Below, one piece after another: positions 6,859-8,016 of a stretch of DNA of 15,824 bases. The notes beneath the pieces are model-generated. The model was not told where the DNA came from. It was given only the letters and a program-made list of their open reading frames with translations, and ran no database searches. Position 1 is the stretch's first letter. Each line of letters opens with the position of its first letter. The translations under genes were made by a program, and so were the position numbers. Origin of the DNA: a virus (lineage: Duplodnaviria; Heunggongvirae; Uroviricota; Caudoviricetes); the IMG/VR virus record IMGVR_UViG_2663763282_000011; one strand, written 5' to 3'.

Positions 6859-8016
6859 ATGCAGAGAATAATCGAATTACGCCAGCAGAAAACCGCCATT
6901 AAAAATCAGATGCGCGACATGCTGGAGAACGCTGAAAAAGAAAACCGCAGTCTTAACGATGCTGAGGGCGCAAAATTTGACGAATTACGCGCTAAAGCTG
7001 AATCCCTCGATAAAGACATTTCCCGCCTTGAAGCCATTGCAGACGAAGAGCGCAGCAAGCCAGGTAAAAGCAGCCAGACCACTGACCCCGCAGAACTACG
7101 TAACTACATTCTGACCGGTGAAACCCGCGCATTAAGTACAGGCGTTCCCGCTGATGGTGGTTATACCGTTATCCCTGAACTGAACACCGAAATCATGCGA
7201 ATGCTGGCGGATGAATCCACCATGCGTCGCATCTGTACCGTGAAGAAAATCAGCAGCAACGAGTTTAAGCAGCTTGTTTCCGCTGGCGGTGCGACCGTTA
7301 ACCACGGTGAAGAGGGTAAGGCACGCGAACAGACCAGCACCCCGCAGATTAACGAGGTGAGCATTAAGCTGTATCCGGTCTATGCGTACCCGCGCACCAC
7401 ACAGGAAATCGTGGATTTTTCCGATGTGGACATCCTTTCATGGCTGACGGGTGAGATTGGCGACACCTTCACGGAAACCGAAGAAAGCGATCTGGTTGTG
7501 GGCGACGGTGACAAAAAAGCAAAAGGTTTTTTATCCGTACCCCGTGCAGAGAAGAACGACAAAGAGCGTGATTTTGGTACGTTGCAGGTAATTAAACCTT
7601 CCGAATCTCTGGCGTGGACATCTGCGGACCCGCTGATCGACCTGAAATTTGCATTACGTAAAAAATACCGCAAAAACGCGGTCTGAGTGGTTAACTCCAC
7701 GACGGCGGCAAAACTTCAGAAGGTGAAGAACGCGAACGGTGATTATATCTGGCGCGACCGTTTACAGGCGGGTGATCCTGATACGTTGCTGGGCCTTCCG
7801 GTCGAATATCTGGAGTTTATGCCTGATAACGTTATTGCCCTGGGTGACTTCAAACGCGGTTACTACATTGTTGATCACGAAACAGGTGTTCGCACCAGAC
7901 CGGACAACCTGACAGAACCAGGATTCATCAAAATTTTCACGCAAAAATATTTAGGCGGTGGCGTGGTGGATTCGAACGCGATCAAGATTCTGGCACTGCC
8001 GGAAGACGACGATTAA
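6859..8016 (+). CDS. HK97-family major capsid protein with N-terminal delta (scaffolding) domain, interrupted by an in-frame TGA at 7684-7686 (ORF-track pieces 6811-7686 and 7687-8016 are the same frame)
   Basis: The N-terminus is coiled-coil-like (MQRIIELRQQKTAIKNQ...), as in HK97 delta domains. The segment after the stop ('NGDYIWRDRLQAGDPDTLLGLPV...ALGDFKRGYYIVDHETGV') is the conserved C-terminal region of HK97-fold capsid proteins. The stop falls in 'YRKNAV*VVNSTTAAKL', where homologues I recall have 'NA-W-VMN'. The total of about 385 aa matches HK97 gp5 size. Start codon uncertain (ATG 6859 has no SD; GTG 6811 is an alternative). Confidence 0.85.

Follow-up and report, generated by a model that had tools for sequence, protein, structure and literature searches.

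Introduction

[quoted passage not shown] The EcCIEDL933 capsid, determined at 3.24 Å (PDB 9GYI), is a 47.5-nm, T=4, HK97-like shell in whose subunit the A-domain follows the loop 227-248 and Arg345 makes inter-P-domain, inter-capsomer salt bridges (10.1101/2025.02.11.637232). When the packaging module was mutated gene by gene, transfer was abolished and replication remained intact; mutation of the hypothetical gene 1792 reduced transfer severely, without abolishing it (10.1101/2022.09.08.507074, section 7).

Two further bodies of work bear on the locus described here. Shigella reference genomes carry at least 199 pseudogenes each, and 19 of the 20 S. flexneri pseudogenes conserved in at least 95% of genomes are interrupted by insertion sequences (PMC7373316). 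The seven deep lineages of S. flexneri differ by a mean of 0.089% and have been separate for 150-600 years (Hawkey et al., PMC7373316). UGA is the leakiest of the stop codons, and its readthrough by Trp-tRNA-Trp in competition with RF2 was put at ~2% at 37°C in a K-12 reporter and at ~4% at 25°C (PMC10570021).

Results

A cf-PICI between roxA and phoQ in Shigella flexneri

The window, by which we mean the whole 15,824-nucleotide stretch of DNA that was analysed, opens with the integrase of an island. Its features were assigned from Pfam matches, called genes and tblastn against the islands of E. coli RM6927 and RM8385.

1-13567, plus strand: cf-PICI-type island
1-1230, plus strand: tyrosine integrase (Phage_integrase)
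1605-1793, plus strand: alpA (Phage_AlpA), followed by accessory ORFs
3471-3770, plus strand: DUF4222
3767-5515, plus strand: D5-type primase (D5_N/DUF5906)
8056 onwards, plus strand: prohead protease (S78), its 3' end lost in the N gap 8612-8699
8719-9930, plus strand: portal
9927-10265, plus strand: head closure
10262-10558, plus strand: connector
10558-10998, plus strand: HNH
11611-13272, plus strand: terL
13286-13567, plus strand: orf93

By this gene content the element is identified as a cf-PICI in the S. flexneri chromosome; the first-pass annotation had assumed a generic E. coli host. The left end has a PICI-type integrase and alpA followed by the replication module, and the head and packaging genes form a full set, arranged as in EcCIEDL933 and fitted into about 13.6 kb, with the capsid gene and terS in damaged form. 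No internal stop was found in the head genes from the protease to HNH (8056-10998), and no tail genes were called in the island. The right end lies between 13.6 and 14.3 kb, and the next chromosomal gene is phoQ, on the opposite strand. The same insertion site by phoQ is used in E. coli RM8385, RM6927 and CE10, which carry intact relatives at roxA/phoQ.

Some accessory ORFs of the left half differ from those of the E. coli islands. The region 1851-2597, whose counterpart in the E. coli islands has icd-like genes, holds a 248-aa ORF (plus strand) after alpA that has no Pfam match, has two non-synonymous polymorphisms within S. flexneri and is accompanied by an opposite-strand ORF (1843-2172, minus strand). 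A 66-aa ORF with a G8 homopolymer (3000-3007) just before it aligns to no more than the first 48 residues of a 77-aa E. coli island protein; given this partial match, the ORF is perhaps one more small gene that has been truncated or rearranged.

The capsid gene is split by one in-frame TGA

6859-8016, plus strand: interrupted HK97-fold capsid gene (ATG at 6859, stop at 8014-8016, 385 codons)
6859-7683, plus strand: capsid N-terminal fragment, codons 1-275 (PF05065 profile positions 1-166 of 280)
7684-7686, plus strand: TGA in place of TGG (W276*), a G-to-A transition at 7686
7687-8016, plus strand: capsid C-terminal fragment, codons 277-385 and natural stop (PF05065 profile positions 169-278 of 280)
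8026-8047, plus strand: terminator-like hairpin and T-run just 3' of the capsid gene (arms GAAGGGGCU...AGCCCCUUU)

The ORF list agrees with the earlier reading that the ORFs 6811-7686 and 7687-8016 share one frame, and the standard size of about 385 aa proposed for their joint product is matched by the 385 codons read from ATG 6859. This ATG is the biological start; GTG 6811 is merely the first possible start after an upstream stop. The only internal stop between 6859 and 8016 is the TGA at codon 276, which stands in the translated context YRKNAV*VVNSTTAAKL and is followed by G, as had been stated. Against the Pfam Phage_capsid family (PF05065, cut-off 24.2 bits) the N-terminal fragment scores 102.6 bits and the C-terminal fragment 84.7 bits. 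Since the fragments are consecutive halves of one PF05065 domain, they represent a split gene and not two chance ORFs. With the TGA at codon 276, no single unbroken polypeptide spans the HK97 fold, and the interrupted gene is a pseudogene of the HK97-fold major capsid family. Its C-terminal 109 codons begin with GTG (UGAGUG), which is why gene callers annotate a separate 109-aa protein.

Two candidate features overlapping the TGA site were set aside: a minus-strand ORF (7380-7700) had no other support, and a minus-strand terminator-like match (7682-7667) belongs to a class of matches no more numerous than expected from shuffled sequence.

The capsid gene is flanked by hairpins on both sides. 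The strong hairpin at 8026-8047 separates it from the protease gene, the usual layout for producing capsid protein in excess. Directly before the capsid AUG, a 7-bp GC-rich hairpin (GUCCUGG...CCAGGAC) is followed by U7 (6822-6858, z = -2.37), and the sole Shine-Dalgarno-like AGGA sits in its 3' arm. This upstream hairpin is identical in four E. coli islands and hence offers no covariation; it could be a terminator or a translational control point of the packaging operon.

Codon 276 encodes tryptophan in the homologues

With the repaired protein as query, 671 relatives were recovered, and the 125 full-length ones, from Escherichia, Citrobacter, Salmonella, Morganella, Proteus, Xenorhabdus and Photorhabdus (66-99% identity), were aligned. 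All 125 have Trp in the column of codon 276 and none has a stop. The motif NA-W-VMN, which had been given for HK97-family capsid proteins, proved correct for this subfamily, whose consensus is NAVWVMNS; the more distant RcGTA capsid has Phe in this column.

At the nucleotide level the proposed change of TGG to TGA was borne out, the sole difference in 181 nt from E. coli 14EC001 and RM8385 being G to A at 7686. A 33-mer carrying TGG, which served as the positive control, was found in 339 of 5,426 complete E. coli genomes, and the identical 33-mer carrying TGA or TAG in none of them; each 28-nt seed spanned the codon. A 61-mer search gave 349 matches, all of 60/61, a score that TGA plus another mismatch would equally give. 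The nearest intact allele is that of E. coli WP_039060865.1, at 12 nucleotide differences, and the amino-acid differences from it are P2Q, W276* and E379A. The S. flexneri sequence with Trp restored (385 aa) was not found in a collection of 15 billion proteins.

The stop is present throughout S. flexneri

The exact 275-aa product occurs in 3556 blocks of the public assembly collection, and the exact 275-aa and 109-aa fragments are each found on at least 1000 contigs named Shigella flexneri, under source names that include 'bacteriophage protein [Shigella flexneri]' and 'phage capsid family protein [Shigella flexneri 2003036]'. Seven loci were read from the assembly collection: the complete chromosomes CP026810.1, CP026799.1 and CP004057.1, the drafts AFHB01 and AFHD01, WACK01 and a gut metagenome. 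All seven show the split into 275 + 109 aa, and the TGA is present in every S. flexneri locus fetched (L003-L009 and L013). When one genome per species was scanned for a 23-mer carrying the TGA (185,579 species), the sole match was Shigella flexneri strain SFBU1023. A scan of JGI metagenomes gave no match to this 23-mer, and that scan is uninformative either way.

The gaps and poly-G artefacts remarked on earlier are present in the window, in the form of two N runs (8612-8699 and 11191-11352) and a G12 run (11179-11190). The latter is partly an artefact: it stands at the end of a contig, and GGGGTGGGGGG is the reading in other assemblies. All lie at least 0.9 kb from the TGA and leave it unaffected. 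Outside the gaps the window is 100% identical to CP004057.1, save for a miscalled T in the G-run.

At least three groups can be told apart among the S. flexneri loci, differing by 0.105-0.13% over ~20 kb, and the TGA is in all of them. Given the mean of 0.089% between the deep lineages, W276* most likely predates the separation of several S. flexneri lineages.

Other lesions in the island

Three further sites of damage map to the window, the first of them recognised by tblastn against the RM6927 and RM8385 islands and comparison with annotated SSB and PerC genes of E. coli islands.

6394-6555, plus strand: ssb-perC remnant ORF, 53 aa (ssb codons 1-25 fused to perC from about codon 54)
6577-6599, plus strand: junction of a 363-bp deletion covering orf74 and capsid-upstream sequence (a 23-nt direct repeat when undeleted)
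11179-11352, plus strand: G-run and 162-N assembly gap over the 5' end of terS

The ssb-perC fusion marks a deletion of ~0.5 kb relative to the E. coli islands and is common to all S. flexneri loci examined. The sequence lost there encodes SSB and a PerC-family regulator in the E. coli relatives. A second deletion is hidden by the N gap in the window: all gap-free S. flexneri loci have lost 97 nt between two CCCCGCC direct repeats (L003 14226-14270), and with them the ribosome-binding region and opening 9 codons of terS, which the E. coli islands possess. The first in-frame start left to terS is a GTG 15 codons into the protein.

Other lesions are confined to sublineages. The 363-bp deletion is found in the window and CP004057.1 (L009) only, the other S. 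flexneri loci being undeleted (L003 9356-9718); the 23-nt repeats at its ends contain a terminator-like hairpin (AGCCGGAGCAATCCGGCT plus a T-run). CP026810.1 (L005) has an IS1 insertion and a frameshift in terL, and the gut-metagenome copy has portal Q388* (L004 12933). In L005, IS1 is found together with single-base indels that split terL and even phoP (positions 6027, 15541 and 19076), and homopolymer errors of long-read sequencing may account for these indels.

Within S. flexneri the island has 23 non-synonymous and 8 synonymous polymorphisms, versus 27 and 89 fixed differences from a small outgroup of just four E. coli islands (Fisher p = 2.8e-7), a comparison in which recent clonal polymorphism always raises dN/dS and some singletons are perhaps assembly errors. 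For the packaging module alone the counts are 13:5 within S. flexneri versus 18:32 fixed (p = 0.012). As judged from these counts, the non-synonymous excess would fit a loss of constraint. The capsid gene itself, with just 3 synonymous and 3 non-synonymous fixed changes specific to S. flexneri, has too few for its own long neutral decay to be judged.

The stop is thus real: it is fixed in divergent lineages of S. flexneri, none of the homologues has it, and the island bears other lesions besides. Among the explanations first put forward was a real nonsense mutation in a decaying, capsid-defective island; the evidence sustains it, and the further lesions in the same island strengthen it. We consider it very likely that the TGA is a genuine, vertically inherited W276* in a decaying cf-PICI, in other words an ordinary lineage-fixed pseudogene.

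Expected loss of capsid function

The repaired capsid aligns over residues 1-385 with the EcCIEDL933 subunit (9gyi_B, E = 2.5e-253, ~99% identical), from which the content of the two fragments can be predicted. The N-terminal fragment would hold the N-terminal region removed in maturation, the N-arm, the E-loop, part of the P-domain and the G-loop. It would also extend through the connector loop 227-248 and ~27 residues into the A-domain. Measured on the PF05065 profile, the 275-aa product has lost about 40% of the conserved domain; it should lack almost the entire A-domain, which makes up the centre of hexons and pentons, as well as the part of the P-domain in which Arg345 lies.

RF2 would terminate translation at codon 276, and the 275-residue product would be unable to build a T=4 shell because the A-domain and the Arg345 segment are missing. 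The island would still be excised and replicated but, having no capsid of its own, would be neither packaged nor transferred. Stranded in this way it would now drift neutrally, as expected in a pseudogene-rich Shigella genome. Since EcCIEDL933 packaging-gene mutants fail to transfer, helper-induced transfer of the S. flexneri island is predicted to fail as well, and neither capsid formation nor mobility is to be expected of the island.

Alternative explanations

Readthrough of the UGA by tRNA-Trp, which had been raised as another explanation, has a part that stands and a part that does not. Background leakiness is possible, at the levels measured in E. coli, and traces of full-length capsid could plausibly arise in this way, the inserted residue being the ancestral Trp. 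For programmed readthrough there is no support: the stop is kept by none of the 125 homologues, no Rfam family, including any recoding element or SECIS, reached its gathering threshold anywhere in the window, and the 86 nt around and after the UGA (7675-7760) fold no better than shuffled sequences (z = -0.94). The sequence downstream of the UGA is the same as in Trp-encoding alleles.

It is very unlikely that leaky readthrough at UGA276 supplies enough capsid for low-frequency transfer, even though the other head genes are still open. Poole et al. are said to have found in 1995 that a G at +4 makes a comparatively efficient context for termination. With 240 subunits to a T=4 shell, truncated protein in ~50-fold excess would be more likely to poison assembly than to allow it. 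The start region of terS has been lost too, and the packaging genes are gaining non-synonymous and nonsense changes within S. flexneri. Readthrough at this codon would be unprogrammed and probably insufficient for capsids.

A related question is whether the island has been kept for some residual role. The protease, portal, head closure, connector, HNH and terL genes are full length in most S. flexneri loci and the island is retained in all S. flexneri lineages examined, so that some residual function is possible. We see little chance that the cf-PICI was kept over centuries for such a role, be it escape by rare readthrough or service as a domesticated interference or defence module made up of the truncated capsid and the open portal and terminase.

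Satellites commonly interfere with the capsid assembly of their helpers. It could be argued from this that the truncation is adaptive, the 275-aa fragment, with or without a reinitiated 109-aa fragment, blocking capsid assembly by phages or satellites, or else that an immobile island benefits the host. The allele has become fixed in S. flexneri lineages with centuries of separate history, and the GTG directly after the stop (UGAGUG) would permit termination-reinitiation. However, clonal descent accounts for the fixation, and direct reading finds no Shine-Dalgarno-like sequence before the GTG. The proteins of EcCIEDL933 do not interfere with helper phage reproduction (10.1101/2022.09.08.507074), and cf-PICI capsid proteins interact with cf-PICI partners only (10.1101/2025.02.11.637232). 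Substitution in the neighbouring genes is close to neutral in its pattern, these genes have disruptions of their own, and related islands have lost the capsid gene through other, unrelated lesions. We regard adaptive truncation as highly improbable.

A base-call or assembly error over a true TGG and an intact capsid gene, which the first-pass annotation had offered and which the window, a scaffolded draft with two N gaps and a miscalled poly-G at a contig end, might seem to invite, can be dismissed as having next to no chance of being right: the same TGA and the identical 275-aa product recur across at least 1000 public contigs, which many projects produced with different technologies and which include three complete S. 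flexneri chromosomes, older drafts and a metagenome; the 2 kb around the stop (6577-8608) are 100% identical to five of the loci read; and assemblies of the same lineage, from which an artefact should be missing, all have the TGA.

Discussion

The reading of W276* as an inherited nonsense mutation in a decaying island has several consequences. Two coding sequences annotated as 'bacteriophage protein' in thousands of S. flexneri genomes are the halves of one dead capsid gene. The S. flexneri element that is counted among cf-PICI-like islands is very probably immobile, and dead islands should be reckoned with in surveys of satellite mobility that tally genes and leave their integrity unchecked. 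Codon 276 is a clean lineage marker, being TGA in S. flexneri and TGG in all E. coli examined, and the island offers a natural experiment in the decay of a satellite after loss of transfer. For an element of a known kind in a pseudogene-rich organism, the practical value of the finding is small but real.

Comparison with known systems

Programmed UGA recoding, as for selenocysteine or the coat extension of phage Q-beta, shares with this locus an in-frame UGA, here in a capsid gene, and an open frame beyond it. Unlike those cases, the S. flexneri stop is not conserved and has neither a SECIS nor a stimulatory structure, and it has no bearing on open questions about recoding.

The resemblance to lineage-fixed pseudogenes of Shigella is closer, in that a single-base nonsense mutation has been inherited by whole lineages and IS1 has additionally inserted in the island of one lineage. 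Unlike the IS-interrupted pseudogenes conserved across S. flexneri, W276* is a point mutation, and the gene it affects belongs to a mobile element and not to core metabolism.

Related islands of Enterobacterales likewise have capsid genes broken into pieces of ~265-270 aa and 109 aa. In L016 the gene is split by a frameshift in a poly-A run (A7 for A6) and in L017 by a TAG eight codons upstream; in L014 the splitting lesion was not located. All three have kept the Trp codon, TGG in L014, and W276* is in this respect specific to S. flexneri. The shared 109-aa length has its origin in GTG277/ATG278 being the first start codon open to gene callers, and does not mark a hotspot. Recurrence of W276* in E. 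coli was suggested by P0018, a fragment of 109 aa whose C-terminus is of the E. coli type and which occurs in E. coli 1.2264 and on 16 other contigs. However, the 109-aa cases that were fetched (P0017, P0151 and P0159) all have TGG, and P0018 is probably similar to them. At the sequence level these examples point to loss of the capsid gene through assorted lesions as common in this island family.

The closest described system is EcCIEDL933 itself. Its capsid also has 385 residues, from which the S. flexneri copy differs by five amino acids plus the stop, and both islands have the order int-alpA-replication module-capsid-protease-portal-head closure-connector-HNH-terS-terL with no tail genes. 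E. coli islands of the EcCIEDL933 type also occupy the same roxA/phoQ insertion site. Unlike EcCIEDL933, an intact island that is transferred at high frequency with the helpers HK106 and HK446, the S. flexneri copy carries W276*, has lost most of ssb and perC and lacks the start of terS.
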